Below are positions 752 through 20,508 of a stretch of 24,000 nt of DNA, in pieces. This DNA comes from Akkermansiaceae bacterium (GTDB lineage Bacteria > Verrucomicrobiota > Verrucomicrobiia > Verrucomicrobiales > Akkermansiaceae): the NCBI GenBank assembly GCA_017798145.1, contig CP059069.1, forward strand, positions 519,226 to 543,225, written 5' to 3'. Position 1 is the stretch's first letter. Every line of letters starts with the position of its first letter. The position numbers and the translations under genes were made by a program. The notes under the pieces were generated by a model. The model did not search any database. It was not told the origin of the DNA and saw only the letters and a program-made list of their open reading frames with translations.

Positions 752-760
752 CCCGCGACC

Positions 761-1687: not shown

Positions 1688-1710
1688 AATCCAACCCATC
1701 ACCGCAGCCC

Positions 1711-5558: not shown

Positions 5559-5650
5559 CCTGCGCCGCCTGACGACTTAGGCAATCTGAATACTTTCAGT
5601 GTCATAATAATCTGACCAAGGCACCTGCCTGACCTCATCCAACCTCAAGA

Positions 5651-5688
5651 AGCCCGCCCGGCCTGTGCCGTGGCGGGCTTTTCGTTTC
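5651..5688 (+). terminator. intrinsic terminator after the PLD gene
   Basis: AGCCCGCC (5651-5658) pairs with GGCGGGCT (5672-5679), with extra inner pairs, followed by TTTTCGTTT. Confidence 0.6.
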
Positions 5689-5713
5689 AACAACCAACTA
5701 ACCAACATCCCAA

Positions 5714-5983
5714 ATGATTCCACATCTCCACAGACACATCCCCCATCCCTGCCAGCCCATGCTGCGCACCCATCGCCGTTTCCCAAATCGGAAATGGTTT
5801 CTGATCCCGCTCGCGGGGTTCGCCTTGGTGCTCGCGCTTGCATCCTGCTCGGAGCCTGCGCCCAAGCCGCCTCCGATCCCGGTTACAACAAATACTGAGC
5901 CCGTGGGCGAAGGCCTGAAGGTCATCGCATTCGCCATGCTTGGCGCGTCCGTCGTAGTCGTCCTCGGGAAGATGATCCGCTGA
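5714..5983 (+). CDS. small putative lipoprotein / membrane protein (89 aa, or 74 aa from ATG 5759)
   Basis: From M16 the sequence reads MLRTHRRFPNRKWFLIPLAGFALVLALASC: a basic n-region, a hydrophobic core and an LASC lipobox. A second hydrophobic segment, VIAFAMLGASVVVVLG, lies at the C-terminus. A CA-rich leader sits upstream. Confidence 0.45.
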   Translation: MIPHLHRHIPHPCQPMLRTHRRFPNRKWFLIPLAGFALVLALASCSEPAPKPPPIPVTTNTEPVGEGLKVIAFAMLGASVVVVLGKMIR

Positions 5984-5986
5984 ACC

Positions 5987-6130
5987 ATGACTCTTCACGG
6001 CTTCCTCCTCCAACTTGTCATCATCCTCCTGCTGACCTGGATCATCGGCTCCATCACCGAATCGGGCTGGTGTGGGCTCTACCTCGCGGTCGTGCCCTTC
6101 GCCTTTTACGAAATGTTGAGGACTCGCTGA
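5987..6130 (+). CDS. tiny hydrophobic protein (47 aa), not in the ORF track
   Basis: Hand translation gives MTLHGFLLQLVIILLLTWIIGSITESGWCGLYLAVVPFAFYEMLRTR, with two hydrophobic stretches. The ATG lies 3 nt after the previous stop. Confidence 0.35.
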   Translation: MTLHGFLLQLVIILLLTWIIGSITESGWCGLYLAVVPFAFYEMLRTR

Positions 6131-6158
6131 TCCGGGGCAGGACAACCCATTCCATCCA

Positions 6159-6299
6159 ATGAATAATCCGAACTTCCTGTTCCTGATCTTCGCATGGATC
6201 GCCATTACCGCCCTCTCGTTCTCGGTGCTGTCCAGCTTCTGGCTGCCGATGCTCGTGGGTGCGGTGACGATCATCCTTCTGATCAAATTCGCACGCTGA
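6159..6299 (+). CDS. tiny hydrophobic protein (46 aa), not in the ORF track
   Basis: Hand translation gives MNNPNFLFLIFAWIAITALSFSVLSSFWLPMLVGAVTIILLIKFAR, with two predicted TM-like stretches. It is followed by a small hairpin (6312-6329) and a terminator-like hairpin. Confidence 0.35.
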   Translation: MNNPNFLFLIFAWIAITALSFSVLSSFWLPMLVGAVTIILLIKFAR

Positions 6300-6345
6300 G
6301 CAAACAAGTATCTACGATAAACATCGTAGCAAACACCCGACCAAC

Positions 6346-6383
6346 AAGACCCGCCCCGGCAACGTCCGGAGCGGGTCTTTCCA
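6346..6383 (+). terminator. terminator-like hairpin after the small-membrane-protein cluster
   Basis: AAGACCCGC (6346-6354) pairs with GCGGGTCTT (6371-6379), with inner CCGG/CCGG pairing. The T-run is short (TTT). Confidence 0.5.
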
Positions 6384-6426
6384 TTCTCCTGAAACAAACA
6401 ACAACCCCAACAACCAGCCCAACATT

Positions 6427-6966
6427 ATGGCAATCAAACTAATAGCAAACTACTCGAAGCGCTTAGGCCTTCCTGGGTTCAGCAGTCACCAGTTCTCCGT
6501 CTCGGTGGAAACTGAGCTGAGTGCTGCCGACGACATCGCCGCCGAGTCCACGCGTCTCTATCACCTCCTCCAGTCCAACGTGGACGAGCAGATGCTCCGC
6601 ACGGGATTCGTCCCGCCGACCGACTACGGCATGGATCCGCCTGCGGATTCCGCCGCAACGCAACGCGGCGATTCCACACCGTCCAACGTCACCACGGTTG
6701 CCAACTGGCAGCGTGGTCCGGCTTGGAAATGTTCCGACAAACAGAAGGATCTGATCCTGAAACTTGTCGACGAGCACCAGCTCGACAAGGATGACGTCGA
6801 GGCACTCGCCAACGAGCGCTTCGGAAAAGGCGTCCGCCTGCTCAACAAGGTGGAGGCATCCGGGCTCATCGACGAGCTGCTCGACACGCATGGCTCCGGC
6901 CAGCGCCAGGGCAACCGCCGCAACGGCTCGGCCTACCGCCGATCCAACGGGAGGGACGCCGCATGA
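6427..6966 (+). CDS. hypothetical protein (179 aa), translationally coupled to the Cas4-like nuclease
   Basis: ATG is preceded by a CA-rich leader, and the stop overlaps the next ATG (ATGA 6963-6966). The C-terminal part, WKCSDKQKDLILKLVDEHQLDKDDVEALANERFGKGVRLLNKVEASGLIDELL, is followed by a basic tail. Family not recognised. Confidence 0.65.
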   Translation: MAIKLIANYSKRLGLPGFSSHQFSVSVETELSAADDIAAESTRLYHLLQSNVDEQMLRTGFVPPTDYGMDPPADSAATQRGDSTPSNVTTVANWQRGPAWKCSDKQKDLILKLVDEHQLDKDDVEALANERFGKGVRLLNKVEASGLIDELLDTHGSGQRQGNRRNGSAYRRSNGRDAA

Positions 6967-7823
6967 CCGCGACAGCTACCCCACCGGAAGCGCCGTTCAC
7001 AACCGGGCTGACACCCTGGGCACAGACGTTGCCCGGACACATCAGCCCGTCGGCGGCGAAAGCCTACCTCGGCTGCTCGCTCAAGTTCTACTACGAGCGG
7101 GTGGCCTGCATCCGCAAGGCGACCCCTGTCGCCCTACACCTCGGCAAGGCGGTGCATGCCGCCCTGCAGTCGTTCCACCTCGCCCGCTGGCGGGGTGGCG
7201 ACGATTCACCTGAGACCGTCGCCGCTGCCTACGAGCTGGCCTTCCAGCAACTCGAACGCGACGAAGGGCCGGTGAACTACAAGGACACGTCCGAGCGGGA
7301 GAAAGCCCGTCAGGACGGCCTGCGCGTGGTTGCCGCCTACCTCGACTCCCCGGAGGCGATGAAGGAGAAGCCGCGTGCGGTGGAAGTCCTGCTCAAGGAG
7401 GACATCCCTGGCCTGTCCGTCCCCCTCACCGGGGCAATGGATCTGGTCGAGGGCGACTTCACGGCAGTGGATTTCAAGTCCGCCGCCGCGAAGCCCGACC
7501 CGGCCAACGCGGCCTTCGATCATGAGATCCAACTTGTCAGCTACCAGCTGCTGATGGAGGCCGCCACCGGCGAAACCCCTCCATCCCTCGATCTGGTTTT
7601 CCTAGTGAAGACCAAGACCCCGCAGGTCATCCGGGTGAAATCCAGACCCGCCGATGAGCACCGAAAGCGCCGGGTCATAGCCTTGCTGGAGACTGCCGTC
7701 CAAGGCATCTCCGAAGACAGGTTCCACCCGCAGCCAGGCATGCACTGCTCGTGGTGCCAGTTCCGCAACGAGTGCGCCCAGTGGCTACCCGGCATGGACT
7801 GGCATGCGAAGAAAGCAGCGTAG
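6963..7823 (+). CDS. PD-(D/E)XK nuclease, RecB/Cas4-like with a 4-Cys (Fe-S) signature
   Basis: It has GAMDLVEGDFTAVDFKS (D...DxK core), a QLVSYQLL (QxxxY) motif, an N-terminal Cys (YLGCSLKFYY, C38) and C-terminal CSWCQFRNEC (C262-x2-C-x5-C, nt 7746 onward). This is the Cas4/AddB-type cysteine arrangement. Confidence 0.85.
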   Translation: MTATATPPEAPFTTGLTPWAQTLPGHISPSAAKAYLGCSLKFYYERVACIRKATPVALHLGKAVHAALQSFHLARWRGGDDSPETVAAAYELAFQQLERDEGPVNYKDTSEREKARQDGLRVVAAYLDSPEAMKEKPRAVEVLLKEDIPGLSVPLTGAMDLVEGDFTAVDFKSAAAKPDPANAAFDHEIQLVSYQLLMEAATGETPPSLDLVFLVKTKTPQVIRVKSRPADEHRKRRVIALLETAVQGISEDRFHPQPGMHCSWCQFRNECAQWLPGMDWHAKKAA

Positions 7824-7827
7824 CCTG

Positions 7828-7877
7828 AAACCAGCGCTCGCCGGATCCGCGTGATCCGGCGGGTAGCTGGTTTTTAT
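7828..7877 (+). terminator. intrinsic terminator after the Cas4-like nuclease gene
   Basis: A nested hairpin: AAACCAGC...GCTGGTTT outside and CGCCGGATC-CGCGT-GATCCGGCG inside, followed by TTTTTAT. Confidence 0.6.
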
Positions 7878-7949
7878 AGGTGTCCAATGCTTTCTTGGCA
7901 AAGATGCAAAGAACGCTACGCTCGCTATTAAATGAGGGCTGACCAAATC

Positions 7950-10900
7950 ATGAAGATACTCCCCGTCGCACCTGTCCTACTCTGTGCAATCATCTCTTTC
8001 CCGCTGTTTCCAACGGGCGCATTAGCTGCCGGAACGACACCTTCATGGCAGGAGATCGGGCCACTGAACATGCCCAGCTTTGAACCGAGCCAAGGGCGGG
8101 TCAATGCGGTTGCCTTTGACCCGGGCAACGCCAATCGCTTTTTCGTTGGAGCGGCCACCGGTGGCGTATGGCGCACCACCGATGGAGGGGCGAACTATAC
8201 GCCAGTCAGTGATAACCTACCCAATCCAGGAGTGAGTTCCCTTGTGGTGGACTACTCAAATGCCAATAGAATCTATCTCGCCACTGGCGACGCGGACGGT
8301 TCCGCTGTTTATAGCATTGGTGTGTGGAAATCGGACGACGGCGGCGGCACATGGGTTGCGACTGGGCTCACCTTTCCCGCCACGGGATTTACCAGAATTT
8401 ATAAACTCATCCAACATCCGACAGCCCCGAATACTCTCTTTGCGGCAACCAGCGCCGGCCTCTATACGACCGCCAATGGCGGCACCACCTGGACCAATTC
8501 GCTAAGCGCTTACAAGCTCTATGACCTCGAATTTAAGCCGGGAACTCCGAGCGTGTTCTACGCCTGTGGCTCCGACGCCGGGGGCGGGAGGTTTCTCCGC
8601 TCTACGGACACGGGAGCCACCTGGAGTGTCATCGCCACTGGTCTGCCTGCCTCAACGGGTGTGGGGCGTTGCGCGATCGCACCTACGTCAGCAGCCCCCG
8701 GCACCATTTATTTCCTGAGTTCCGGGACTTCAAGCTATTATGGCCTATGGCGCTCGCAGGATTCCGGACTTTCCTTCTCTCAGATGTCAGGCAGCGGTGC
8801 TTCCAATGTGTTTTCCGGAGTGTCTTCATACAAATGCACCCTCACTGTCGCGCCCGATGCCGCCGATGAGGTGTATGTGGCGGGTACGACTCCTTTCAAG
8901 TCTGAGGATGGTGGTTCGACTTGGACTGAAATCCGCAATGATGCCGCTTTTGCGATGGTCTGCCATGTTGATTTTCATGCTATGGAATGGCGGGGCGCTG
9001 ATCTCTATGTCGGTACGGATGGAGGGCTGCACAGAACTGCCAATCGAGGGATCAACTGGACCGATCTGAGCGCCCGGCTAGGCATTGCACAAATCTATGC
9101 TTTCGGTCAGACCGAAGCCACCGCAGCTCTCGTCTACACGGGACAGCAAGATGATGGGCTCAACCGCTGGAACGGTTCATCATGGGCGCATGTGCAGGTT
9201 GGCGACTGGGGGCGGAGTGTCATACATCCGTTTCAGGCGTCGATTGGATACGCCTTCGTTCAGTCCAGCCTGAGAAAGACCACCGATGGATGGAGTTCCA
9301 GTCAGGCCCTTACGATCACCTCGACTGAGTCCGGACCATTTGTGAATACCTCACTCGTCATGGATCCGCTTGTGCCTGAGACGCTCTATGCTGGCTTGCA
9401 GAATGTCTGGAAAACCACCGACGAAGGGGTCACCTGGAGCAAGGTCTCCACCTTCGGATCAGGTACGGTGTCCTCTCTTGCCGTGGCGTCTTCCAACCCG
9501 AAATATATTTACGCCAGCACCAGCACGGGTGACCTATGGGTCACACAAAACGGAGGTGTTAGCTGGACGAATACGCGTGCCCACGGACTCCCCTCCTCGG
9601 GAGGGCGTGCACTCAGACAAATCGCCATCAGCCCGGTTGACCCAAGCACAGCATACCTCTCAACCGACGGCTATGGCACAGGGCCGCGCATCTACCGCAC
9701 CACCAGCGCTGGGGGAACCTGGTCTGATTATTCCGGCTCCCTGCCCGCAGTTCCCGTGCGCAGTGTCGCAGCAGCGGATGGTAACAAAGCAGGGGTCTAT
9801 GCCGGCACCAGCCTCGGCGTCTATTACCGGAGTTCGTTACTTTCAGATTGGATTCCCTTCAACACAGGGATGCCAAACACCTTCATCTCCGATCTACAAA
9901 TTCACAGGGGCTCCCAAAAACTACGAGCCGGGACGTATGGTCGCGGTCTTTGGGAGTCGTCGATAGTCGAAGTCCCGCCCATAGTCACAACGGGGAACGT
10001 GATGTCTTTCATTGCTGCCGCATCAGAGAACTGCGATAGCTTGGCGAGCGTGACGGCAAGCGTTTCTGACGGATACAGCGTGGTGGACACGACGATCTTC
10101 GACAGTGCAACTGCCTCCTTCCATCTCGCCCATGCTTCCTACGCCCCGCAGTCGATTGCGTTGAATGCCGAGTATGTGCCGACTGCCACCTCCAACCTGC
10201 AGTTTCGCAGCCGCCTCGGGTTGGCGACCCCAACCCAGATAATTCATGTTCAGGCATCGACTGATGGCGGCGTCTCATGGACGGACATTTATACGCAAAG
10301 CGGCAGCGGGACATCGGGTGAGAGTTCATTCAATACGCGAAACGTATCGCTGGCGGCCTATGAAGGATCGGTCATCAGGTTGCGTTTCACATACAGCGTA
10401 TCCGGCAGCTACTATCCCCAAACCAGCAACGGGATCGGCTGGCATTTTGACTCTGTCAGTTTCACCGATACCTCTCAGATCACCGCAACCAACCCTTCTG
10501 CCACTGTCGTGAACGGTTCCGTCAATCCGAACGGAATGGCATCGACAGCATGGTTTGAATTTGGCACCACAAGATCTTATGACACACGGAGTGCCATACG
10601 GAATATAGGGAGTGCCGCCTCTGCCGCTCCGATCACGGAAACATTAACCGGTTTACTTCCTGACACGACCTACCATTACCGCGTTGTATCCGTTAATCCA
10701 GATGGCACCAGCCAAGGGCAGGACCGGACATTCGTCACGGGTGGCGCAACAGCCTTTTATGTGTGGGCAAGCGCTAATGGGGTATCTAACGATCCAAATG
10801 CAATCGGTGCCAATGGCATCAAGAACCTCCTCAACTTCGCTTTCGGAGTGGATCCGGTGAATGGCGATGGCGGCGGCCTGGAATACACCGGCACCTTTGC

Positions 10901-11174
10901 CGGAGGCGGGACGATCAAGGCTACCGGTCAACCTATAACGCTCTATGCGGGAGCCGACTTCCGCACCATCTTTGTCCGGCGCAAAGACTACAATGTGGCC
11001 GGACTGACTTACACCGTGCAGTTCAGCGCAAATTTGAGCATGTGGGAGGATGGTGGCGTGCCAACCGTGCTTGCAGATAACGGCATCTATGAAATCGTAA
11101 GCATTGGGTATCCGCCGCTCGTCGACGGTCTGCCACCCCACTTTTTCCGACTCAAGGTTAGCGTTACGCCGTGA
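7950..11174 (+). CDS. secreted Asp-box (BNR) repeat beta-propeller protein with C-terminal Ig/FN3-like modules
   Basis: At least 9 SxDxGxTW-type Asp-boxes are present (TTDGGANYT, KSDDGGGTWV, TANGGTTWT, STDTGATWS, SEDGGSTWT, TANRGINWT, TTDEGVTWS, TQNGGVSWT, TSAGGTWS). The in-frame ATG at 7950 gives the signal peptide MKILPVAPVLLCAIISFPLFPTGALAA and is preferred over the track start at 7932. Confidence 0.85.
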   Translation: MKILPVAPVLLCAIISFPLFPTGALAAGTTPSWQEIGPLNMPSFEPSQGRVNAVAFDPGNANRFFVGAATGGVWRTTDGGANYTPVSDNLPNPGVSSLVVDYSNANRIYLATGDADGSAVYSIGVWKSDDGGGTWVATGLTFPATGFTRIYKLIQHPTAPNTLFAATSAGLYTTANGGTTWTNSLSAYKLYDLEFKPGTPSVFYACGSDAGGGRFLRSTDTGATWSVIATGLPASTGVGRCAIAPTSAAPGTIYFLSSGTSSYYGLWRSQDSGLSFSQMSGSGASNVFSGVSSYKCTLTVAPDAADEVYVAGTTPFKSEDGGSTWTEIRNDAAFAMVCHVDFHAMEWRGADLYVGTDGGLHRTANRGINWTDLSARLGIAQIYAFGQTEATAALVYTGQQDDGLNRWNGSSWAHVQVGDWGRSVIHPFQASIGYAFVQSSLRKTTDGWSSSQALTITSTESGPFVNTSLVMDPLVPETLYAGLQNVWKTTDEGVTWSKVSTFGSGTVSSLAVASSNPKYIYASTSTGDLWVTQNGGVSWTNTRAHGLPSSGGRALRQIAISPVDPSTAYLSTDGYGTGPRIYRTTSAGGTWSDYSGSLPAVPVRSVAAADGNKAGVYAGTSLGVYYRSSLLSDWIPFNTGMPNTFISDLQIHRGSQKLRAGTYGRGLWESSIVEVPPIVTTGNVMSFIAAASENCDSLASVTASVSDGYSVVDTTIFDSATASFHLAHASYAPQSIALNAEYVPTATSNLQFRSRLGLATPTQIIHVQASTDGGVSWTDIYTQSGSGTSGESSFNTRNVSLAAYEGSVIRLRFTYSVSGSYYPQTSNGIGWHFDSVSFTDTSQITATNPSATVVNGSVNPNGMASTAWFEFGTTRSYDTRSAIRNIGSAASAAPITETLTGLLPDTTYHYRVVSVNPDGTSQGQDRTFVTGGATAFYVWASANGVSNDPNAIGANGIKNLLNFAFGVDPVNGDGGGLEYTGTFAGGGTIKATGQPITLYAGADFRTIFVRRKDYNVAGLTYTVQFSANLSMWEDGGVPTVLADNGIYEIVSIGYPPLVDGLPPHFFRLKVSVTP

Positions 11175-11492
11175 GAAGGAGGGCTTGAATTTCTTTTGTA
11201 GCAAATACGTATCACCGCACACTTTGGCAATCCCAGCTGGGATCTGAGTGAGACTCTGCCGAGGGAACAAGGGGGATGACCTCGTGTCGGCGAATGGCGT
11301 CGGTGTCGGTCATGGGCAGAAATGATTTGGGTGGGGGTCGTGCTGCGGCAAGCCGGGTGCGAACAATGAGAGAAGCAGGACAGTGGTGCCTGCTTCCAGG
11401 TTCGCCAACGGAATTACGTCCCGCTCCGCGTCATAATGAATTGAAAGGAACCGTGGGTTTCTTCCCTCAACACCAACCCCAATACTGACACT

Positions 11493-12515
11493 ATGAATCC
11501 AACACCACACACCAACCAAACCCTCCTCGAAGGCATCTGCCGACGCGGAGTCCTTGTCGCAACATCCGTCCGTTACTGGCGGGGTTGCAAGCGGCTCAAT
11601 CCCGAAGACCTCGGCCTTGATCCCGCGCACGTTTCCGACCGGCTCATCCAGCTCGGTCACAAACGCCTGATCCCCCGTGATGCGCTCTCGGCCTTCGCCC
11701 TGATCGAGTCCCGGACAAACGCCTCCGTGGAGTCTTCGAGCTTTCCCTTCCTGGGAGGCATCGGACGCTTCGTGCCGAACCCCCGGCTCGGCGACCTCAC
11801 CGACAAGCTCAACCAGCTCCGTGAGGAGTTCCGCGAGGCCACGCTCGACTTCGTCGCAGGTTACGCACCCCTGCGTGATGCCGCGATGGAGGAGTGGCGC
11901 GAAGCCGCCCAGCACCTCAACGGAAGTGCAGAGCGCCTGATCGCAACCATCGAGCAGTCGTTCCCGCCCGCCGGGGAGATCGCCAAGCGCTTCGCCTTCG
12001 AGACACGCTTGTTCCAGATTGCCGCCCCCGACCACATCCGCCTGGAAGTGGCCGACGGCATGGAGCGGCTTGAAGTCGCCGACGACCGCCGCCGCATTGC
12101 GGAGGAGGCATCGCGCCGCCTTCAGTCCGACCTCGACGGCTTCATCCGCGAGAGCGTCGCCTCGATGCGTGAGGAAACCGCCCGGCTCGCCGGAGAGGTT
12201 CTCGCCACCATCGACGGATCGGAGAACGGAGTCCACCAGCGCACGCTGAACAGGCTCACCACGTTCATCGACAGCTTCCGTTCGTTGAACTTCGCCGGAG
12301 ACCAGCAGCTGGAGCAAACGCTCGAACGCTTCCGCCGCGACCTGCTCACCCGCAGCGCGGAGGACTACCGCAACGACAGTGCGGCGATGGGCAGCCTCAC
12401 CCAAGGGCTCGCCCGCCTCCGCGAAAACGCCGTCCAGCTCGCCCGCAGCGACGCCCGCGAACTCGTCTCCCGCTTCGGACAGATGGGATCGCGCAGGCTC
12501 GCAGCGGTGAGCTGA
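11493..12515 (+). CDS. DUF3150-like protein (plasmid/ICE-associated family, function unknown)
   Basis: The N-terminus, VLVATSVRYWRGCKRLNPEDLGLDP...LIQLGHKRLIPRDALSAFALIESR...FPFLGGIGRFVPNPRL...LREEFREATLDFVAGY, matches the DUF3150 pattern as I remember it (W-G-x-K-x-L-x-x-EDLGL ... LG-x-K ... FL-G). It is chosen over the longer antisense ORF on composition and on its CA-rich leader. Confidence 0.65.
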   Translation: MNPTPHTNQTLLEGICRRGVLVATSVRYWRGCKRLNPEDLGLDPAHVSDRLIQLGHKRLIPRDALSAFALIESRTNASVESSSFPFLGGIGRFVPNPRLGDLTDKLNQLREEFREATLDFVAGYAPLRDAAMEEWREAAQHLNGSAERLIATIEQSFPPAGEIAKRFAFETRLFQIAAPDHIRLEVADGMERLEVADDRRRIAEEASRRLQSDLDGFIRESVASMREETARLAGEVLATIDGSENGVHQRTLNRLTTFIDSFRSLNFAGDQQLEQTLERFRRDLLTRSAEDYRNDSAAMGSLTQGLARLRENAVQLARSDARELVSRFGQMGSRRLAAVS

Positions 12516-12608
12516 GACTGGCACCACTACTGGCAGCCCGGTGGAAGTTTGATCTTCCGCCGGGTTGCCTCTACTTTCGATCCAACCCCAACATGGAGAC
12601 CACACCCC

Positions 12609-13178
12609 ATGCCCTACATCCGCAAAACATCCCGCAAACCCGGACGCCACTTCGTCACCCTGGACCGCCTCACAGAGGCCAACTGGCAGGTGACCGTGGA
12701 AATGGACAAGCTCGGTCTCTGGTGCGACGAACTCTATGAGATCGACGTATGGCTCGTGCCCGTTTCCTTCTGCTGCTACGGCTGGTTCCAACCGGAGGGC
12801 GACATCTACATCCCGGCTGTGACCGGAGCCAACCTATCCGATTTCATCACCAGCCATCACACACGCCTTACCGACGTCCTGCGCCACGAGTGGTCGCATG
12901 CGCTGGCCGACCGCCGGCCGGAGCTGGTCGATAGCAAACGCTTCGTCCGCACTTTCGGCGGCGACTACGATTCGCGCCACCCCGTCCGGGATCACGACCC
13001 GGATCACCACCTGACGCCCTATGCCGCCACAAGCCCTTGCGAGGACTTTGCGGAAACCTTCCACTACTACATCCGGCACAAGGGAAGGCTGCCGCTGCGC
13101 CTCGCCAACAAGACTAAGATCGCCCGCAAGTGGGAGTTCATCGAGTGGATGGCGGGTAGGATTTCTAAAGCAATCTGA
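12609..13178 (+). CDS. putative zinc metallopeptidase (HExxH)
   Basis: HEWSH lies at nt 12885-12899, with a downstream SPCEDFAETFHYYI segment typical of small zincin-like peptidases. ATG 12609 (MPYIRKTSRK) is preferred over the track's TTG 12549 because the leader word CAACCCCAACA sits 15 nt upstream, as at other starts. Confidence 0.7.
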   Translation: MPYIRKTSRKPGRHFVTLDRLTEANWQVTVEMDKLGLWCDELYEIDVWLVPVSFCCYGWFQPEGDIYIPAVTGANLSDFITSHHTRLTDVLRHEWSHALADRRPELVDSKRFVRTFGGDYDSRHPVRDHDPDHHLTPYAATSPCEDFAETFHYYIRHKGRLPLRLANKTKIARKWEFIEWMAGRISKAI

Positions 13179-13220
13179 TACTGTTCGCCCCGGCCGACAG
13201 GATCGCCCAAACTCCACATC

Positions 13221-13925
13221 ATGAAATGCCTCACTTGGAACCTCGAATGGACGAACCCGGCCAGCCGCCGGGCAAGTTTGATCAATGAACTCATCTCCGG
13301 GATCGATCCGGACGTCATCTGCTACACGGAGGTCAACAAGGACATGGTGCCAGCAGGGCACATCATCGAGGCCGATGCCGATTATGGCTATCCAATGAAA
13401 CCTGGTCGCAGAAAGGTTCTGCTCTGGAGCAAGTATCCCTGGACGCAACCCGATGCCTACGGGGATGACGAGTTGCCGAGCGGAAGGTTTGCCATGGGCG
13501 TGTGTAGAGGGATCCGCTTCGTCGGAGTCTGCATTCCTTGGCGTGATGCCCATGTGAAGACAGGGCGGCGCGACCGTGCCCCTTGGGAGGATCACATTTC
13601 CTATTGCGCAGGCCTCGGGCGCATCCTCCGGCAGCATGCCGCCGATGCGGAGCCGCTCTGCGTTTTGGGGGACTACAACCAACGAATCCCCAGGGTCAGC
13701 CAGCCGATAAATGTCGCCCAGGCTCTTGCCGAGGAGATTCCGGATGATTTTCGGATAGCTACAGCCGGTGCAACCGACCTCGAAGGCCTGAACCTCATCG
13801 ACCACATCACCGTATCAGCGGGACTTGAAATCTCGGTCACCGGATTTCTGCCGAGAACCTCCGAAGACGGAACCCACCTTTCCGACCATTCGGGAGTCGT
13901 GGCAGAACTCCAAGCCCTCGACTGA
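13221..13925 (+). CDS. endonuclease/exonuclease/phosphatase (EEP) family protein
   Basis: Motifs are in canonical EEP order: MKCLTWNLEW, DVICYTEV, VLGDYNQRI, IDHITVS and LSDHSGVVAEL. Confidence 0.85.
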   Translation: MKCLTWNLEWTNPASRRASLINELISGIDPDVICYTEVNKDMVPAGHIIEADADYGYPMKPGRRKVLLWSKYPWTQPDAYGDDELPSGRFAMGVCRGIRFVGVCIPWRDAHVKTGRRDRAPWEDHISYCAGLGRILRQHAADAEPLCVLGDYNQRIPRVSQPINVAQALAEEIPDDFRIATAGATDLEGLNLIDHITVSAGLEISVTGFLPRTSEDGTHLSDHSGVVAELQALD

Positions 13926-13974
13926 GCCATCGTCCAGCGGATCAAATCCGCGAGCCTCTACGGCCTCATTTCCG

Positions 13975-14007
13975 AGCCCGCCCGGTCACCAACCCGGCGG
14001 GCTTTTT
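13975..14007 (+). terminator. intrinsic terminator after the EEP gene
   Basis: AGCCCGCC(C)GG pairs with CCGGCGGGCT (one bulge), followed by TTTTT. Confidence 0.65.
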
Positions 14008-14030
14008 CGTGCCGTAGTTGCGGCATCTCC

Positions 14031-14180
14031 ATTTCCCCAGCCAGCCCACTACACCTCCCGTCACATTACTCCGCCCCAACCAGCCTGAATTTTAAACCAC
14101 CACCAATCCCACCACCAATCCCACCACCTCCAACGAAACCACCCGACCCAACCCCACTGCCAAAACACAACGACTCATCC
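14031..14180 (+). promoter_or_regulatory. G-depleted, C/A-rich untranslated tract (rut-like leader or ncRNA body)
   Basis: My hand count gives about 11 G in 150 nt. The tract lies between a terminator (13975-14007) and a second terminator-like hairpin (14186-14225). No plausible ORF is present. Confidence 0.35.
14097..14129 (+). repeat. 12-nt tandem repeat CCACCACCAATC, about 2.7 copies
   Basis: CCACCACCAATC occurs at 14097-14108 and 14109-14120, followed by the partial copy CCACCACCT. Confidence 0.8.
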
Positions 14181-14185
14181 GCACG

Positions 14186-14225
14186 AAGGGCGGCTCCATA
14201 CCGGGGCCGCCCTTTGTGCGTTTCC
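14186..14225 (+). terminator. terminator-like / attenuator hairpin in the leader of the DUF1257 operon
   Basis: AAGGGCGGCTCC pairs with GGGGCCGCCCTT (about 12 bp including one G-U), followed by TGTGCGTTTCC. It lies 36 nt upstream of ATG 14261 and downstream of an already complete terminator. Confidence 0.5.
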
Positions 14226-14260
14226 AGCAAAACAACAACCAACCAAATACGAACAACCAC

Positions 14261-14650
14261 ATGTCACACTTCACCACCATCCAGACCCAGATCCGGGATC
14301 TTGAAGCCTTGCGCGACGCATCCGTCGAACTCGGCCTCCAGCTCCTGGCTGATACCCAGTGCCGGGGCTACGCCGGCATTACCCGTCCCGCACCGCACGT
14401 CATCAAGCTCAAGGGCCCGTATGACATCGCTGTCGAGCCGGACAAGGAGAACCCCGGCTGCTACGGCCTCACCACCGACTGGTGGGATGGGCACGTCGCC
14501 AAGGAAGTCGGCACCGGCTACAGCCGCCTGCTGCAATCCTACGGCGTCCACAAGACCATGCGCGAGGCCGCCACACGCGGGCTGCGCCACACCCGCAGGA
14601 TCGAGGCCGACGGCACCGTCCTGCTCACCCTGGAAGGAGGTTCGCTATGA
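14261..14650 (+). CDS. DUF1257 (Ycf35-like) protein
   Basis: MSHFTTIQTQIRDLEALRDASVELGLQL... is the characteristic DUF1257 N-terminus as I remember it. ATG 14261 is preceded by the leader word CAACAACCAAC. The stop overlaps the next ATG. Confidence 0.8.
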   Translation: MSHFTTIQTQIRDLEALRDASVELGLQLLADTQCRGYAGITRPAPHVIKLKGPYDIAVEPDKENPGCYGLTTDWWDGHVAKEVGTGYSRLLQSYGVHKTMREAATRGLRHTRRIEADGTVLLTLEGGSL

Positions 14651-14847
14651 GCCGCAAGATCCTTGTCCGTGTTTCCCCAGCCGGGGAGATCAGCGTCGAG
14701 GCCGAGGGCTTCCAGGGAAAAGGCTGCGAGGCCGCCACCAAGGCGATCGAGGACGCACTCGGGAAACCCCAGGCGCGCACCCGCAAGCCGCAGTTCTGGC
14801 GACCCCAGTTCCTCCGCAACGAACAACAGCTAGGAGGCGAGGGATGA
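14647..14847 (+). CDS. DUF2997-like small protein (66 aa)
   Basis: MSRKILVRVSPAGEISVEAEGFQGKGCEAATKAIEDALGKPQARTRKPQF matches the remembered DUF2997 pattern (beta-hairpin, G-x-G-x-x-C, LG, basic tail). ATGA overlaps occur at both ends (14647-14650 and 14844-14847). Confidence 0.75.
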   Translation: MSRKILVRVSPAGEISVEAEGFQGKGCEAATKAIEDALGKPQARTRKPQFWRPQFLRNEQQLGGEG

Positions 14848-15140
14848 AATCCACCCTCCGCTTCAACCCCGGCGGTCACATCGACTGCCTCTACACCGAA
14901 GCGATCGATCTCCGTGCGCTCGGGCGACTTCATGTCGTCCGGGCCACGGACATCCGTTTCTGTGAAAAGACCCAACTGTGGAAAGTCCGCTGTGCCTCGT
15001 CCGGCCAGCTCCTCCACAGCGATCCCTCCCGCGAGGCATGCCTCGTCTGGGAACATGAAAACCTCGGCCCACCCAATCCGGAACCACCGAGACCCACCGG
15101 CACACTGCCAAACCTCAGACCGGTCACAGGCCGGCTCTGA
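14844..15140 (+). CDS. hypothetical small protein (98 aa)
   Basis: This is the C-terminal 98 codons of track ORF 14214-15140, starting at the ATG that overlaps the DUF2997 stop: MKSTLRFNPGGHIDCLYTEAIDLRALGRLHVVRATDIRF... It is wedged between two recognisable genes of the same operon. Confidence 0.55.
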   Translation: MKSTLRFNPGGHIDCLYTEAIDLRALGRLHVVRATDIRFCEKTQLWKVRCASSGQLLHSDPSREACLVWEHENLGPPNPEPPRPTGTLPNLRPVTGRL

Positions 15141-15163
15141 CAACCAAGAACCAATCCAAACTT

Positions 15164-16690
15164 ATGAACCTCACCACCTACCTCCGCGCCGGATACCCCG
15201 GCCTCGCCATCATCAGTTCCGAGGAAGCTCGTGCCGAAGCGGAAATCGCCAACGCATGCACTTCCCTGAAACGCAAACTCCTCGCCTGGTCCTCCACGGA
15301 GGGTCTTGCCGATGTTAAGGAAGGGCGCGTCACCCCGTGCCCCGACCCACTCGATGCCTTCCAGCTTCTGGACGGCGTCTTCGCCTCGGACAAGCCACGC
15401 CACGTCGTGCTGCTCCGGGATCTCCAACTCCACCTCGACCAGAGCGACCCCATGCTCGTGCGCCGCATCAAGGACGCACTGCGCATCGCCAAGGCCAACG
15501 GCCACACCATCGTCCTGCTCGGCTGCCGTTTGAAACTGCCCGCCGAACTCGAACACGAGATCACCCACGTTGATTTCGACCTGCCCGACCCGGCGGGGCT
15601 TCACACCGTGCTCGATGGCATCATCAAGTCGGCGAAGCTAAAGAATGTCCACGAGGTGATGCGGGAGGCAGCCGTCCAGGCAGCCCTCGGCCTCACCACC
15701 ACGGAAGCGGAGAACGCGTTCGCCCTGTCGGTCATAGAGACCAATGGGATCGACCACCGCATCATCTCCCGTGAAAAGGCGAACACGCTGAAACGAAACG
15801 GCCTCGTCGAGGTCGTCGGGAACGCCACCTCCCTGGAGGACATCGGCGGACTCGGCCTGCTCAAGGAATGGCTGCAACGCCGCTCCGGTGCATTCAGCGA
15901 ATCCGCGAAAGCCTACGGGCTGCCCGCACCGAAAGGATTACTCATCGTCGGCATCCCCGGCACCGGGAAATCGCTCACCGCGAAAGCCACCGCCGGAGCA
16001 TTCGGCCTGCCGTTGCTGCGCCTCGACATGGGGCGTGTGTTCGGTGGCATCGTCGGCCAGTCGGAAGCCAACCTCCGCTCCGTCATCCAGACCGCCGAGG
16101 CCATCGCCCCGTGCGTGCTGTGGATCGATGAAATAGAAAAAGGCTTCTCCGGAAGCTCTTCGAGCGGCAGCACCGATGGCGGCACCTCCTCCCGTGTCTT
16201 CGGCTCGTTTTTGAGTTGGATGCAGGAGAAGACCAAGGCGGTGTTCGTCGTGGCGACGGCGAATGATGTTTCCAAGCTCCCGCCCGAGTTCCTGCGCAAG
16301 GGAAGGTTCGACGAAATGTTCTTCGTAGATTTACCCGACGCCTTCGAGCGTGCGCAGATCTGGGACATCGTCATCGCCCGGCACAAGCGCAAGCCAACCG
16401 ACTTCGACACCGTCGTCCTCGCCCGCGCCTGCGAGCAGTTCACCGGGGCGGAGATCGAGGCCGTGTTCATCGACGCCATGCACGAGGCCTATGCCGAAGG
16501 CGAGGAACCCAAGCCCAAGCACATCCTCGAAGCCATCAACGGCACCGTCCCCCTGGCGCAGCTCATGGACGGCAAGATCGCCGCGTTGAGACATTGGGCG
16601 AAAGGCCGTGCCCGTGAGGCAGCGAGCCGGAGCAACACCACGTCGTCGGCATCCTACCGCCCCAACAGACGGATGTCCGGGATGAACTGA
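15164..16690 (+). CDS. Ycf46-like AAA+ ATPase
   Basis: Walker A is GIPGTGKS (nt 15950-15973; K269 at 15968) and Walker B is CVLWIDEIEKGF. The region GGTSSRVFGSFLSWMQEK...VFVVATANDVSKLPPEFLRKGRFDEMFFVDLP closely follows the Ycf46 family sequence as I remember it. The length (508 aa) and a non-AAA N-terminal domain also fit. Confidence 0.9.
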   Translation: MNLTTYLRAGYPGLAIISSEEARAEAEIANACTSLKRKLLAWSSTEGLADVKEGRVTPCPDPLDAFQLLDGVFASDKPRHVVLLRDLQLHLDQSDPMLVRRIKDALRIAKANGHTIVLLGCRLKLPAELEHEITHVDFDLPDPAGLHTVLDGIIKSAKLKNVHEVMREAAVQAALGLTTTEAENAFALSVIETNGIDHRIISREKANTLKRNGLVEVVGNATSLEDIGGLGLLKEWLQRRSGAFSESAKAYGLPAPKGLLIVGIPGTGKSLTAKATAGAFGLPLLRLDMGRVFGGIVGQSEANLRSVIQTAEAIAPCVLWIDEIEKGFSGSSSSGSTDGGTSSRVFGSFLSWMQEKTKAVFVVATANDVSKLPPEFLRKGRFDEMFFVDLPDAFERAQIWDIVIARHKRKPTDFDTVVLARACEQFTGAEIEAVFIDAMHEAYAEGEEPKPKHILEAINGTVPLAQLMDGKIAALRHWAKGRAREAASRSNTTSSASYRPNRRMSGMN

Positions 16691-16735
16691 CCCGCGCCGT
16701 AGCTGTGGCATCCTGCCGCATGCCCCATAATATCC

Positions 16736-16768
16736 CTGCCAGGGAGAGTTCCATCCTCTCTCTGGCAG
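16736..16768 (+). terminator. strong hairpin after the AAA+ gene (probable terminator, weak U-tract)
   Basis: CTGCCAGGGAGAG pairs with CTCTCTCTGGCAG (13 bp including one G-U, 7-nt loop). The tail is CATGCCTTTCCC. Confidence 0.45.
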
Positions 16769-17004
16769 CATGCCTTTCCCTCTCAAAACTCCCGCACCCA
16801 ACCCTTCCTAACTCCCCGCCACCCATCCCTCAAGAGCGCTCGGCAGCGCGGCTTACAAAGCCGTGATCCTCACCTCCCACCTCACTCGATACCTCCAGCG
16901 GTAGTCTGAACACAAGCGCCGTTGAACGAAACAGCTGGGGTGCACCCGAAAGGCCGCCCCAAGTCGCTTGTGCGGGGAAAGAAAAACGGTAAAAGAGCAA
17001 AAGG

Positions 17005-18027
17005 TTAAAGGGTAAAACGACGCCTTCTGGTCAGCAACGCGCTAGCTGACAATACCGTCAAAAGTAATGCCGACGGCTCGGGGACACTGGCGACGCGGAA
17101 CCCCACGTAGTCGAGCTCGTTCGGGGGCGTGTTGACGTTGCTTTTGGACGCGGGCAGGGAGTCGGAGTTGTTGGCCCACGAACCGCCCCGCATCCCGCGC
17201 GTCGAACCAAAGACCACCGCATCGTTCCATTCAAACACGTTCCCCGCTTGGTCGTTCGTTCCATACGCGCTCTCCGAATTCGGGCCATACGCACCGACAT
17301 CCGTCAGATAGTTCTGGCTGCTGCTGTAGCTACCGCTCTGCGTCACCGCAAAATCCGTGCTATCGAAGTAATTCGCCGCGCCTGCCGCGCCGACGGTGTT
17401 GCTGTTGATCGTATTGCTCTGCGTAGCCTGCGCCCAGTAGCCGCCCACTCCGGGACCGCCCTTGTTCGGATCATAATACGCCGCCTTATACCACTCGTTT
17501 TCCGAAGGGAGCCACACCGTGGCTCCCACGTTCTTCGAGGACCCCACGCCGCTGGTCGCGCCGTTGAGCGTGTAGGCTCCGTCTTCCGTGGTGGATGCGT
17601 TCTGCGCTCCCGTCGTCTGGCCGTTGTGCAGCCAGTTGGTGAAACGCGCCGCATCGAACCAGCTCACGTAGGTGATGGGGCGGTTCCCGCTGCCGAGCAC
17701 GGTGTAGGAATAATCTCCCGATGTGCCGATGCGCTGGATGCCCGAAATGTTCGCGTTCGTCTGCATGGAAGTGTTGTAAAGCGCGTAGGTGTCCGTTTTG
17801 GCCACGGCGTTGAGGAACGCGGCATACTGCGAGATGGTCGTCTCGTTCTTCGAAATCTTGTATTCATAGCCAACCGCGCCGTAAAGACCGCCGGTCGCCG
17901 CGTCGTTCGCGTTGTTGATGTCACCGACGGTGACGTAGTCTATGCTGACAACGGCGAAGGCCGGAGTTCCAAGGGCGATGCCAGCCAGAACGGCGAGCCT
18001 GCGGGAGGGAATAATAGGGAGTTTCAT
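17005..18027 (-). CDS. FGE/SUMF1-domain (formylglycine-generating-enzyme fold) protein with signal peptide and PEP-CTERM anchor
   Basis: The signal peptide is MKLPIIPSRRLAVLAGIALGTPAFA. FGE-fold motifs include RPITYVSWFDAARFTNWL, VFEWNDA, RGGSW and GFRVA. The C-terminal VPEPSALLLTVLSASALLTRRRR is a PEP-CTERM sorting signal. Confidence 0.85.
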   Translation of the reverse strand: MKLPIIPSRRLAVLAGIALGTPAFAVVSIDYVTVGDINNANDAATGGLYGAVGYEYKISKNETTISQYAAFLNAVAKTDTYALYNTSMQTNANISGIQRIGTSGDYSYTVLGSGNRPITYVSWFDAARFTNWLHNGQTTGAQNASTTEDGAYTLNGATSGVGSSKNVGATVWLPSENEWYKAAYYDPNKGGPGVGGYWAQATQSNTINSNTVGAAGAANYFDSTDFAVTQSGSYSSSQNYLTDVGAYGPNSESAYGTNDQAGNVFEWNDAVVFGSTRGMRGGSWANNSDSLPASKSNVNTPPNELDYVGFRVASVPEPSALLLTVLSASALLTRRRRFTL

Positions 18028-18204
18028 AAAGAAGGGCTACAAGTGACCCTCTAGAAAACAGAAAACGTGCCGGATCACAAGAGATTTAGAGGGGCGTTTT
18101 TGAGGCTGAAGGCCTGCCCACCGAAGACGGCACGATGCCCAATTTCCCCTGCATGACAGACCCGCCCCGCACGACGTGCACAAGCGCGGCGCGGGTCACG
18201 ACAA

Positions 18205-18256
18205 GGCCGCCACGGACTCCCTGGAGAAGGGAACCCGTGGCGGCCATTTCTTTTCC
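18205..18256 (+). promoter_or_regulatory. orphan terminator-like hairpin in the ligase leader
   Basis: GGCCGCCACGG (18205-18215) pairs perfectly with CCGTGGCGGCC (18235-18245), followed by ATTTCTTTTCC. There is no upstream + strand gene for it to terminate, because the neighbour is divergent. Confidence 0.5.
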
Positions 18257-18311
18257 AACCCCTCTCACCACGAGAACCAAACCAACAACCAACCCCAATC
18301 CATACCAAAAA

Positions 18312-19403
18312 ATGAACATCAGCATCACCAGCACGTCCCTCCATTTCCGCGAGGGCAACTCAGACAAGGAATACCACGTCGCCGTCGAGCCGGAGGGCGA
18401 GGGCTACATCGTCACCTACGCCTATGGCCGCAGGGGCTCAACCCTCACCACCGGTAGGAAGACCCAGCACATCGTCACGCTCACCGAAGCGAACAAAATC
18501 CACGACCAGCTCGTCCGCCAGAAGACCGCGAAAGGCTACCGCCCCGCCGGGGAGTCCCGCCAGCCCGACCGCACCAGCACAACCGACGGACAGGACAGCG
18601 GCATCCGCTGCCAGCTCCTCAACCCTGTTGACGAATCCGAACTCGACCGGCTCCTCGGCAGCGATGCCATCTGCCTCCAGGAAAAGTTCGACGGACGCCG
18701 CCTCATGGTTCGCAAACGCGGGGACGAGATCACCGGTATCAACCGCCGTGGACTCATCATCCCCATCCCGGAACCCATCCGCCACGCCTTGAAAGAACTC
18801 CCCGTGGATGTCCTCATCGACGGCGAGGCGGTCGGCGACACCCTCCACGCCTTCGACCTCCTTGAGGTGAAAGGCCACGACATCCGGGGCAACGCCTACC
18901 TGTCACGCTTCGCCGGGCTGCTCACCCTCCTCGATCCCGAACACAAGCACCTCCGCCCCGTGAACACCCACATGGAGGCTGAGGAGAAACGCGCCATGTT
19001 CGAGACCTTCCGCCGATGCGGCAGCGAGGGGGTCGTCTTTAAGGAGATCGACGCACCGTTCAGCCCCGGCCGCCCGAACTCCGGTGGTAGACACCTGAAG
19101 TTTAAGTTCGTCGAGAGCGCCTCGTTCATCGTCACCGGGCACAACGCCAAGCGCAGCGTCACCCTCGGCCTGCTCGCGGAGGACGGCGGAGGCATCGTCC
19201 CCGCAGGCAAGGTCACCATCCCACCGAACCACCGGATCCCGGCAGTCGGTGCCGTCGCGGATTGTCGCTTCCTCTACGCCTTCCGGGAAAGCGGCAGCAT
19301 CTACCAGCCTGTCTATCTTGGCGAACGGGAGGACATCCCCGCCGAGGACTGCACCACCGCTCAGCTGAAATACAAAGCCGAGCCAATGCAGGTAGCCGCC
19401 TGA
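18312..19403 (+). CDS. WGR-domain::ATP-dependent DNA ligase fusion
   Basis: The N-terminal WGR-like module is SDKEYHVAVEPEGEGYIVTYAYGRRGSTLTTGRK...KTAKGYRP. Ligase motif I is QEKFDGRR (K at nt 18684), III is VLIDGEAV, IIIa is LHAFDLLEV, IV is EGVVFKE and V is HLKFKF, followed by an OB-like tail. ATG 18312 is preceded by both leader words, so the track's upstream extension from 18135 is rejected. Confidence 0.85.
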   Translation: MNISITSTSLHFREGNSDKEYHVAVEPEGEGYIVTYAYGRRGSTLTTGRKTQHIVTLTEANKIHDQLVRQKTAKGYRPAGESRQPDRTSTTDGQDSGIRCQLLNPVDESELDRLLGSDAICLQEKFDGRRLMVRKRGDEITGINRRGLIIPIPEPIRHALKELPVDVLIDGEAVGDTLHAFDLLEVKGHDIRGNAYLSRFAGLLTLLDPEHKHLRPVNTHMEAEEKRAMFETFRRCGSEGVVFKEIDAPFSPGRPNSGGRHLKFKFVESASFIVTGHNAKRSVTLGLLAEDGGGIVPAGKVTIPPNHRIPAVGAVADCRFLYAFRESGSIYQPVYLGEREDIPAEDCTTAQLKYKAEPMQVAA

Positions 19404-19480
19404 TCCCAAACCTTCCGGCAAGGACCCACGAGGCAAGCCCGAGTCGCACGACATCATGTAGCGCGACCGGGGTAACACCG

Positions 19481-19531
19481 GCCGCCATGGAGAATCCTGA
19501 TGAAGGAAATGCTCCATGGCGGCTTCTTTTT
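19481..19531 (+). terminator. intrinsic terminator after the ligase gene
   Basis: GCCGCCATGGAG (19481-19492) pairs perfectly with CTCCATGGCGGC (19512-19523), followed by TTCTTTTT. Confidence 0.7.
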
Positions 19532-19644: not shown

Positions 19645-19709
19645 CCAGCTTTGCTCAATGAATGATTGTGAATTGCGTGGTGCGCGGAAGTTTGCAAGCA
19701 TTCCTCCCG

Positions 19710-20453: not shown

Positions 20454-20508
20454 ATAATCCCTGTCAGGTTTCTGCCGATTGAGCGTTCTTACCAGACAGG
20501 TCGCAACT

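Follow-up and report, generated by a model that had tools for sequence, protein, structure and literature searches.

The window analysed here is a stretch of 24,000 nucleotides (nt) from an Akkermansiaceae bacterium (assembly GCA_017798145.1, contig CP059069.1, positions 519,226 to 543,225 of the forward strand), in which a dispersed set of DNA-processing genes lies between positions 5688 and 19531. As first described from the letters alone, this set comprises small membrane proteins, a Cas4-like nuclease with its partner (here p179), a DUF3150 protein, an HExxH peptidase, an EEP nuclease, a series formed by DUF1257, DUF2997, a protein of 98 amino acids (aa) and an AAA+ ATPase, and a fusion of a WGR domain with a DNA ligase. 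All these domain calls were reproduced on the basis of an open reading frame (ORF) listing and of Pfam, NCBIfam, PHROG and PADLOC scans (Table 1). Likewise, the scanned ORFs of the window yielded no integrase, replication-initiator, virion or conjugation domain, a tRNA search returned no tRNA, no Rfam family matched, and flanking direct repeats were not found, in agreement with the earlier remark that the window shows no obvious attachment (att) repeat.

Table 1. Features of the core and of its inserts, in window coordinates.
Feature	Positions	Strand	Remarks
Block A left edge	5599..5713	+	GC-rich hairpin with T-run at 5651-5682, then C/A-rich leader
C/A-rich CAACAACCAAC-like leaders	5683-5713, 6377-6426, 14226-14260, 15141-15163, 18246-18311		usually right after hairpin and T-run
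Small membrane protein	5714..5983	+	LASC lipobox-like signal, C-terminal hydrophobic helix
47-aa hydrophobic protein	5987..6130	+	few relatives carry a homolog; weak constraint, dN/dS 0.5-0.7
46-aa hydrophobic protein	6159..6299	+	dN/dS 0.2-0.4
p179, 179-aa partner protein	6427..6966	+	two conserved domains, variable linker; dN/dS 0.11-0.21
Cas4-like PD-(D/E)XK exonuclease	6963..7823	+	PDDEXK_1 E 8e-32; PHROG exonuclease families
BNR/sortilin secreted protein	7932..11174	+	cargo of the A-B gap; GC 0.57 vs 0.60-0.66 in the core
DUF3150 protein (PF11348)	11493..12515	+	E 5e-25; 88.8 bits vs Pfam gathering threshold 24.9
HExxH (HEWSH) zincin peptidase	12609..13178	+	189 aa; Peptidase_Mx match 1e-4, under the Pfam cut-off
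EEP nuclease/phosphatase	13221..13925	+	E 9e-11; occasional accessory gene
DUF1257 protein	14261..14650	+	E 5e-8; phrog_20456
DUF2997 protein	14647..14847	+	E 5e-14; phrog_23133
98-aa protein, no family	14844..15140	+	conserved between DUF2997 and AAA+; dN/dS 0.17-0.58
Classical-clade AAA+ ATPase, 508 aa	15164..16690	+	AAA E 1e-29; phrog_8638 7e-138; 240-aa N-terminal domain
FGE-sulfatase-domain protein	17005..18027	-	cargo of the C-D gap
Repeat R, copy 1	18140..18246	+	covariance model R1: 38.3 bits, E 1.5e-8; directly upstream of the ligase leader
WGR + ATP-dependent DNA ligase (KFDG motif)	18312..19403	+	363 aa, like relatives; ORF opens at 18135
Repeat R, copy 2	19410..19525	+	R1: 97.9 bits; right edge of the conserved core

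Related loci were gathered to the number of 164 from Verrucomicrobiae genomes and metagenomes (80 from species-representative genomes, 80 from metagenomes and several through exact look-ups), plus one Lentisphaerales locus, and the context of each was inspected over 10 kb on either side. Four blocks recur in them: A, with the membrane proteins, p179 and the Cas4-like protein; B, with DUF3150 and, optionally, the peptidase; C, formed by DUF1257, DUF2997, the 98-aa protein and the AAA+ ATPase; and D, the WGR-ligase. The gene order is the same in 34 of the 35 loci that hold p179, Cas4-like, DUF3150, DUF1257, DUF2997, AAA+ and ligase genes. Of 56 loci with at least 3 kb of upstream sequence, 44 have both p179 and the Cas4-like gene; with at least 4.5 kb downstream, 43 of 49 have DUF1257 and the AAA+ gene, and with at least 9 kb downstream, 27 of 38 have the ligase. 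An independent metagenome set shows the same block pattern. The original prediction that these dispersed genes belong together is thus borne out, as relatives carry them together in a single order and they are not to be counted as ordinary host genes, and its own counter-hypothesis, that the gene sets would never be found together elsewhere, fails.

The closest relative (L001, whose DUF3150 protein is 98% identical) aligns with the window only at 5599-7875, 11267-13154, 14036-16642 and 18148-19496, with 77-93% nucleotide identity in these blocks and unrelated DNA between them, and the end points first given for the set agree with the conserved blocks. All core ORFs are full length, and purifying selection acts on every core gene, the ratio of nonsynonymous to synonymous substitution rates (dN/dS) being 0.05-0.3. 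Because of this selection the window copy appears functional and not decayed, and the reading of the region as a decayed remnant is not supported. The core also stands out by its composition, with a GC content of 0.60-0.66 vs 0.55-0.58 in cargo and surroundings, and its coding strand has more C than G and more A than T (GC skew to -0.21 and AT skew to +0.29, at 6001-8000 and 11001-19500).

The distances between blocks range from 74 to 5069 nt between the Cas4-like and DUF3150 genes, from 43 to 7194 nt between DUF3150 and DUF1257, and from 36 to 2614 nt between the AAA+ and ligase genes; therefore, an island in its compact form measures about 8 kb, and the copy in the window has unusually large inserts. 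In tblastn searches the BNR gene had no homolog in any other locus and the FGE gene none between the blocks of other loci, with a 30% match in the flank of L070, while a single other locus (L047, 59%) carries an EEP homolog at the threshold used. Since counterparts between the blocks are absent elsewhere, or single in the case of EEP, the three genes are considered as cargo. The BNR and FGE genes had been described as host-type surface-protein genes interleaved with the units: their position holds, the label does not, and the possibility that they formed part of the same conserved island in all relatives is discarded by their absence from the other loci. More broadly, a Pfam census of 148 gap ORFs recovered AbiEii (9) together with AbiEi, EEP (3, including that of the window, besides two flank ORFs), FGE (2) and DUF3368, and single cases such as DnaB_C, NYN, PLD, N6 methylase, ankyrin and peptidyl-prolyl isomerases; PADLOC confirmed AbiE and PDC-S70 among these ORFs. 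Unrelated FGE-domain proteins are cargo or flank genes at other loci.

The distribution of the core carries the case for mobility. Many assemblies hold two to five copies, in part placed on 100-440 kb contigs. Identity among the copies of a single genome is 67-100%, and several of them resemble copies from other genomes more closely. Among 154 flanks, 19 pairs share at least 1.5 kb, and these mostly correspond to the same organism sampled twice, or to shared cargo or integrase. Some copies are mosaic: L047 and L048 are 97% identical over 3.3 kb only, and L053 and L055 are 99.5% identical in DUF3150 and 93% in block C. Different contexts, variation in copy number and turnover of cargo are thus all found, as is required of a mobile island.

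Furthermore, de novo clustering of ORFs revealed a 464-aa tyrosine integrase in 6 of the 61 loci with enough left context, always to the left of block A, on the same strand and 0.2-6.4 kb away, and a probable further one in L089. This last locus accommodates within about 17 kb, from one end to the other, an integrase-like gene, the cargo, the core and AddAB-like genes, and the AddAB-like genes, 1.4 kb from the ligase, are probably host genes judging by their Pfam domains. That mobility genes might lie outside the window had been one of the early proposals; this may be the case, with the integrase seen in those six loci and not in this window. In 12 of the genome loci, and in several from metagenomes, a DnaN-like clamp gene stands next to the ligase, on its right, and 14 loci carry XRE repressor-like genes. 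Of 44 loci, 10 have a tRNA no more than 10 kb away, which in two cases adjoins block A directly. In turn, a Pfam and PHROG census of 243 flank ORFs from about 80 loci found no capsid, terminase, tail, relaxase or type IV secretion system (T4SS) gene among the 25 commonest families, which included those of the integrase, AbiE, ImpB, SRAP, PLD, methylase, proteases and ordinary metabolic genes.

Altogether, we take the region, on balance, to hold one intact core copy of an integrated mobile island, whose family is specific to the lineage of the Verrucomicrobiae. Judged by its sequences, this family would be widespread across the class and its core previously undescribed: a full-text search of the literature on DUF3150, DUF1257/DUF2997, WGR-ligases and Verrucomicrobiota mobile elements retrieved no description of the gene set. 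Compared with what had been recognized at first, the EEP gene is accessory, and the set is multi-copy, Verrucomicrobiae-wide and endowed with cis-elements of its own.

Several points weigh against this interpretation. No repeat of the tRNA 3′ ends was found in 9 loci, and no flanking direct repeats in the integrase-bearing loci or in the window; neither circular contigs, sought through terminal overlaps, nor excision junctions appeared among genome and metagenome loci; and the integrase is present in only about 10% of the informative loci and not in the window. As no replication initiator, relaxase or packaging gene was recognized in the family, its movement is deduced from distribution alone. 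The multi-copy evidence comes mostly from metagenome-assembled genomes, in which binning can merge strains, and the censuses list the 25 commonest families, so that rare structural genes may escape them. The AlphaFold models were weak (pLDDT, the predicted local distance difference test, of 65 and 61), and a Foldseek search of the PDB, run for DUF3150, gave no match. Confinement to one class and housekeeping-like conservation also fit a long vertical residence.

The core carries expression signals of its own. Its units open with a GC-rich hairpin and a T-run, followed by a leader poor in G and T such as CAACAACCAAC; the hairpin at 5651-5682 occurs a second time at 13975-14006 (repeat family D11), and homology to L001, L036 and L037 begins at 5599. 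When a leader is scored as a 30-nt stretch with at most four G or T within the 120 nt before the gene start, it precedes 83% of clamp genes, 68% of DUF3150, 67% of p179, 49% of DUF1257, 32% of AAA+, 30% of the first small membrane protein and 19% of ligase genes (whose start is imprecisely placed), vs 3% of cargo and 2% of flank genes. This enrichment before core genes makes the shared leader words, noted at the outset, real and island-specific. They might be leaders for translation independent of a Shine-Dalgarno sequence, or binding sites of Hfq/S1 type. The description of the units as terminator-bounded holds in part: terminator-like hairpins are not in excess in the window (19 vs 17.8 expected in shuffles), while those at unit ends do lie within the blocks conserved in relatives. 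A 17-nt motif, GCCGTAGYTGYGGCATC, with two occurrences in the window, was found in none of the 176 loci and was judged a chance occurrence.

A second signal, the repeat R, is about 107 nt long and folds into two helices; its window copies bracket the WGR-ligase gene, and others are found in L001, L014, L016, L024, L028, L067 and further loci. Gene-strand orientation is kept in 59 of 60 copies of relatives, and all copies lie to the right of the AAA+ gene, either directly after it (18) or after the ligase (26). Within the helices 94% of cells pair, vs 30-53% with the partners slid, and compensatory changes affect 19 of 24 base pairs in an alignment fitted to the model. R has no Rfam match and no IMG/VR contig fits its covariance model; it would be a new structured RNA or DNA motif. 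The 18-nt core pattern of R, GGCAAGCCCG-N1-4-GCACGACA, was met in 38 IMG/VR contigs (L177-L214), none of which fits the covariance model and many of which come from one sample (3300045988); there it is probably due to chance, or is an unrelated motif of one phage group. Directly to the right of the island edge, at 19662-21924, a sigma-70-region-2 protein is followed by a Ser/Thr kinase, a pair for which no counterpart was found beside other copies.

Variation in the arrangement of the blocks was also observed. L007 (4747-11017) has the circularly permuted order C-D-A-B, with the ligase within about 60 nt of the p179 leader, which could correspond to a re-integrated circle or to a simple rearrangement. 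A divergent verrucomicrobial lineage of about 70% identity (L071, L073, L138, L142, L163-L165, L170-L172, L176) is devoid of p179 and Cas4-like genes, joins DUF3150 directly to DUF1257 and carries an extra 311-aa ATPase gene downstream and, by motif identification only, RadC/JAB-like and phosphoribosyltransferase-like genes upstream. As this lineage keeps only DUF3150 and block C, these would constitute the invariant nucleus of the family. The Lentisphaerales locus, of 50% identity, retains DUF3150, DUF1257, DUF2997 and the ligase. Directly to the left of the window core, positions 77-5558 hold defence-type genes, among them the C-terminus of an ATPase like PDC-M55A/NsnB/HEC-03 with DUF3696, a ZacB-like PLD nuclease and two proteins of no family; they may be cargo located between an unseen integrase and block A.

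Regarding the individual proteins, the first membrane protein of block A, whose start is probably at 5759, has homologs in about 20 loci (dN/dS 0.2-0.3), and many relatives encode an RHH-like 70-aa protein upstream of p179. This latter protein matches no Pfam, NCBIfam or PHROG family and has 2382 homologs; the stop codon of its gene overlaps the start codon of the Cas4-like gene. The Cas4-like protein has four cysteines for an Fe-S cluster (one N-terminal, and a C-terminal CxxC..C) and matches Cas4 models at 6e-14 and 3e-12, with an equivalog score of 46.6 vs a cut-off of 65. A CRISPR-Cas adaptation module was rejected, given this missed cut-off and the lack of cas genes or arrays in the window.

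In block B, DUF3150 is the most conserved core gene (dN/dS 0.05-0.17). It has 803 database relatives, the best 120 of which are 81-98% identical, and the named members among these 120 all belong to Verrucomicrobiota (Luteolibacter, Akkermansiaceae). Exact look-ups of the window protein and of P0203 gave no record, and no close relative was found in 2.9 million IMG/VR contigs. When p179, DUF3150 and the 98-aa protein were compared with PDB entries by profile or sequence search, only noise appeared (TniQ, E 0.2; a DNA glycosylase, E 1.2). The 70-aa Arg-rich ORF preceding DUF3150 (11276-11488) is weakly conserved (dN/dS 0.81) and is probably a non-coding leader, not a gene. The zincin gene, the start of which was re-placed near 12609, is present at 13 loci, and a second variant of it at 6. 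The link of DUF3150 and WGR proteins with plasmids, which had been put forward at the outset, could be documented: in IncC plasmids DUF3150 is flanked by bet/exo and by a VWA protein, with a CobS-like AAA in the vicinity, a Geoalkalibacter plasmid has the gene order AAA-WGR-DUF3150-VWA, and WGR-ligases occur on many plasmids.

The ATPase of block C belongs to the Cdc48/FtsH clade, its nearest solved relatives being the D2 domain of Cdc48/p97 (3e-51), and its AAA+ domain matches IetA models (IetA-like, 3e-23; IteA, 1e-22); an IetAS/SgiAT system was rejected, as no S8 protease was found in the window or among the core families. The DUF1257-DUF2997-AAA+ trio recurs on the Geminocystis plasmid pGM3709_04 (L095, 6150-9509), where a zeta-toxin cassette interrupts it and OLD-type and zeta-toxin genes adjoin it. 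In Rhodobacter phage RcTiptonus (L091, genes 60-63) a DUF2997-like gene and an unassigned gene of 126 aa lie near the AAA+ gene, and relatives of the AAA+ protein with 34% identity are present in Corndog-type phages and in a Streptococcus satellite. Other homologs, on enterobacterial plasmids (in a VWA/kinase/phosphatase cluster) and on a Treponema plasmid (in a contractile injection system), are part of unrelated systems and are therefore uninformative on the module. Tandem duplication of the DUF1257 gene, in two or three copies, was seen in L148 (12440-13981), L146 (9901-10920) and L086 (5433-6476).

As to block D, the predicted WGR::ligase fusion is real and its start had to be corrected, because the 59 codons upstream of 18312 are the C/A-rich leader and not an N-terminal extension. 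The nearest named relative of the enzyme is the LigD ligase domain (TIGR02779, 2.5e-19, 69.6 bits vs a cut-off of 227.75). Identification as the LigD of non-homologous end joining (NHEJ) was rejected, with this score under the cut-off and no Ku among the core genes; the flank census holds a single Ku-like gene, in one distant flank. Full-length WGR-ligases stand among small unknown genes on mycobacterial, Variovorax and Pseudomonas plasmids.

How such an island might work can be sketched. The core consists of four co-oriented transcription units, which would serve the island itself, and the gaps and the stretch from integrase to block A are cargo slots; fuller copies have the clamp after the ligase and the tyrosine integrase far to the left. 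Units A and D (the exonuclease with p179, the break-sensing ligase and the clamp) may process, join and seal the ends or nicks of island DNA during establishment, repair or recombination between copies, a role that the mosaic copies fit. Block C and DUF3150 could be a protein-remodelling module, either holding the island in an addiction-like manner, as the AAA+/protease pairs IetAS and SgiAT do, or countering host factors. The hairpin-leader junctions and R would act as expression signals punctuating long co-oriented transcripts, each with a 3′ stabilizer or terminator and then an unstructured, Shine-Dalgarno-independent leader. Transfer from cell to cell would need a helper, or a route encoded elsewhere.

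Alternatively, the set could be a chromosomal system of several operons, domesticated and passed on vertically, that acts in DNA-break repair, defence or anti-defence; it would have been duplicated within genomes, and ordinary variable defence islands would surround it. The strong purifying selection on core genes fits such a system, and so do its restriction to one class with 70-98% identity across genera, the lack of an integrase in about 90% of informative loci, the defence genes around many copies and the near-identical copies within some assemblies, which are consistent with duplication or gene conversion. However, flanks are almost never homologous between genomes, one genome may hold divergent copies (67-85%) with their nearest relatives in other genomes, and cargo lies inside the set, between its operons. 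Moreover, one integrase family keeps a fixed position and strand, the leader and repeat signals of the core are not common to neighbouring host genes, and core GC exceeds that of the surroundings. Domestication had been among the initial proposals; weakened by the multi-copy state, the divergent copies and the unshared flanks, it now seems doubtful to us, although it deserves some credence.

A bolder version of the island would be a new class of compact mobile element moving or copying itself without a canonical recombinase, by means of its own cis-signals and its own resect-and-seal machinery (the Cas4-like exonuclease with p179, the WGR-ligase and the clamp), and both collecting and spreading defence and surface-protein cargo among Verrucomicrobiae. 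DUF3150 and the DUF1257/DUF2997/AAA+ series would then be essential element functions, and the leaders and R the cis-signals. We regard this as unlikely.

More unlikely still is that the core represents the early replication or recombination region of a larger prophage, ICE (integrative and conjugative element) or integrated plasmid, with virion or transfer genes more than 10 kb away. Phage early regions and plasmid leading regions do typically contain Cas4-like, ligase, clamp and AAA+ genes together with regulators of RHH and XRE type and numerous small ORFs, AAA+ homologs exist in Corndog-like phages and in RcTiptonus, in the latter with a DUF2997-like gene nearby, and the inspected context ends at 10 kb on each side. 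Nevertheless, no relative was found among the 2.9 million IMG/VR contigs, the commonest families of the flank ORFs include no head, tail, terminase, relaxase or T4SS gene, flank content is heterogeneous and non-homologous between loci, and in L089 the whole span from integrase-like gene to host-like AddAB genes is about 17 kb. A tailed prophage was rejected, with no virion genes in the window or among the commonest flank families and no IMG/VR relative, as was an ICE or conjugative plasmid, since relaxase, coupling protein and T4SS are absent from the window and the flank censuses. With regard to phage satellites, the core has no replication initiator, primase or capsid-hijack domain, DnaB_C having been found once, as cargo.

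Finally, an integron-like platform in which R would be an attC-type site capturing single-gene cassettes (AbiE, ligase, clamp) is highly improbable: R is folded, of about 107 nt and in gene orientation, two copies bracket the ligase and copies adjoin cargo, but this reading was rejected on the ground that R does not delimit cargo in a consistent way (the window FGE gene lies between the AAA+ gene and R, and the L014 cargo after R), and R moreover forms two separate helices and not one long bulged hairpin, is missing from the left half, where most cargo sits, and has no integron-type integrase (IntI) adjacent.

Verrucomicrobiae are abundant in lakes, soils and oceans, and the class also includes the gut Akkermansia; to our knowledge, almost nothing is known about their mobile DNA. 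The proposed island family would be very common, with 2382 homologs of p179 and more than 800 of DUF3150, and it carries anti-phage cargo. It provides a defined and testable genetic context for five uncharacterized families (DUF3150, DUF1257, DUF2997, p179 and the 98-aa protein), together with what appear to be a new structured motif, R, and an element-specific type of Shine-Dalgarno-free leader. The island could be studied in cultured strains that carry it, namely Luteolibacter sp. Populi (CP161812), Haloferula sp. BvORR071 and Luteolibacter marinus (NBU1238). If it were true that the core drives movement independent of an integrase, a new mechanism of gene mobility would be at hand.

Among known systems, the bet-exo/DUF3150/VWA/CobS-like AAA region of IncC plasmids likewise lies on a mobile element and places DUF3150 next to an AAA+ ATPase and to a pair of recombination proteins that includes an exonuclease; SXT/R391 ICEs carry the same backbone region. 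Nevertheless, the DUF3150 proteins are only about 25% identical, over half the length of the protein; the IncC exonuclease is of lambda-Exo type and works with Bet, whereas that of the island is Cas4-like and comes with p179; and the IncC ATPase is of CobS/MoxR type and paired with VWA, whereas that of the island is Cdc48-like, accompanied by DUF1257 and DUF2997 and by no VWA protein. Furthermore, no conjugation machinery was found in the island.

The island ligase is nearest to the LigD ligase domain of the Ku and LigD pathway of NHEJ, but the core has no Ku, and instead of polymerase and phosphoesterase domains its ligase carries WGR, a domain that senses DNA breaks in proteins of the PARP family. 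Mycobacteriophages of the Corndog and Omega types make use of bacterial NHEJ. By analogy only, R and the hairpin-leaders resemble the hairpins processed by RNase III that punctuate the early and late transcripts of T7, as they are likewise folded, gene-oriented and placed between co-oriented cistrons; the sequences are unrelated. As for the ATPase, its domain resembles the antitoxin-type ATPases IetA and SgiA, and SgiAT stabilizes an island (PMC10954446); the island protein is larger, however, with its additional N-terminal domain, and its partners are DUF1257, DUF2997 and the 98-aa protein, with no S8 protease found.

The islands SGI1 and MGI and satellites of P4 or PICI type are also compact and integrated and in some cases have a tyrosine integrase at one end; they lack virion and T4SS genes of their own, and they combine a conserved core with variable anti-phage slots and several copies per genome. 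In the island described here, by contrast, no replication initiator, primase, packaging redirection, origin of transfer (oriT) or relaxase was recognized, no att sites were found, and the core genes show no relationship to those of any satellite or mobilizable-island family described so far. On this comparison, its closest counterparts would be, in spirit, the mobilizable islands and satellites that carry defence genes and, in parts, the bet-exo/DUF3150 region of IncC plasmids.

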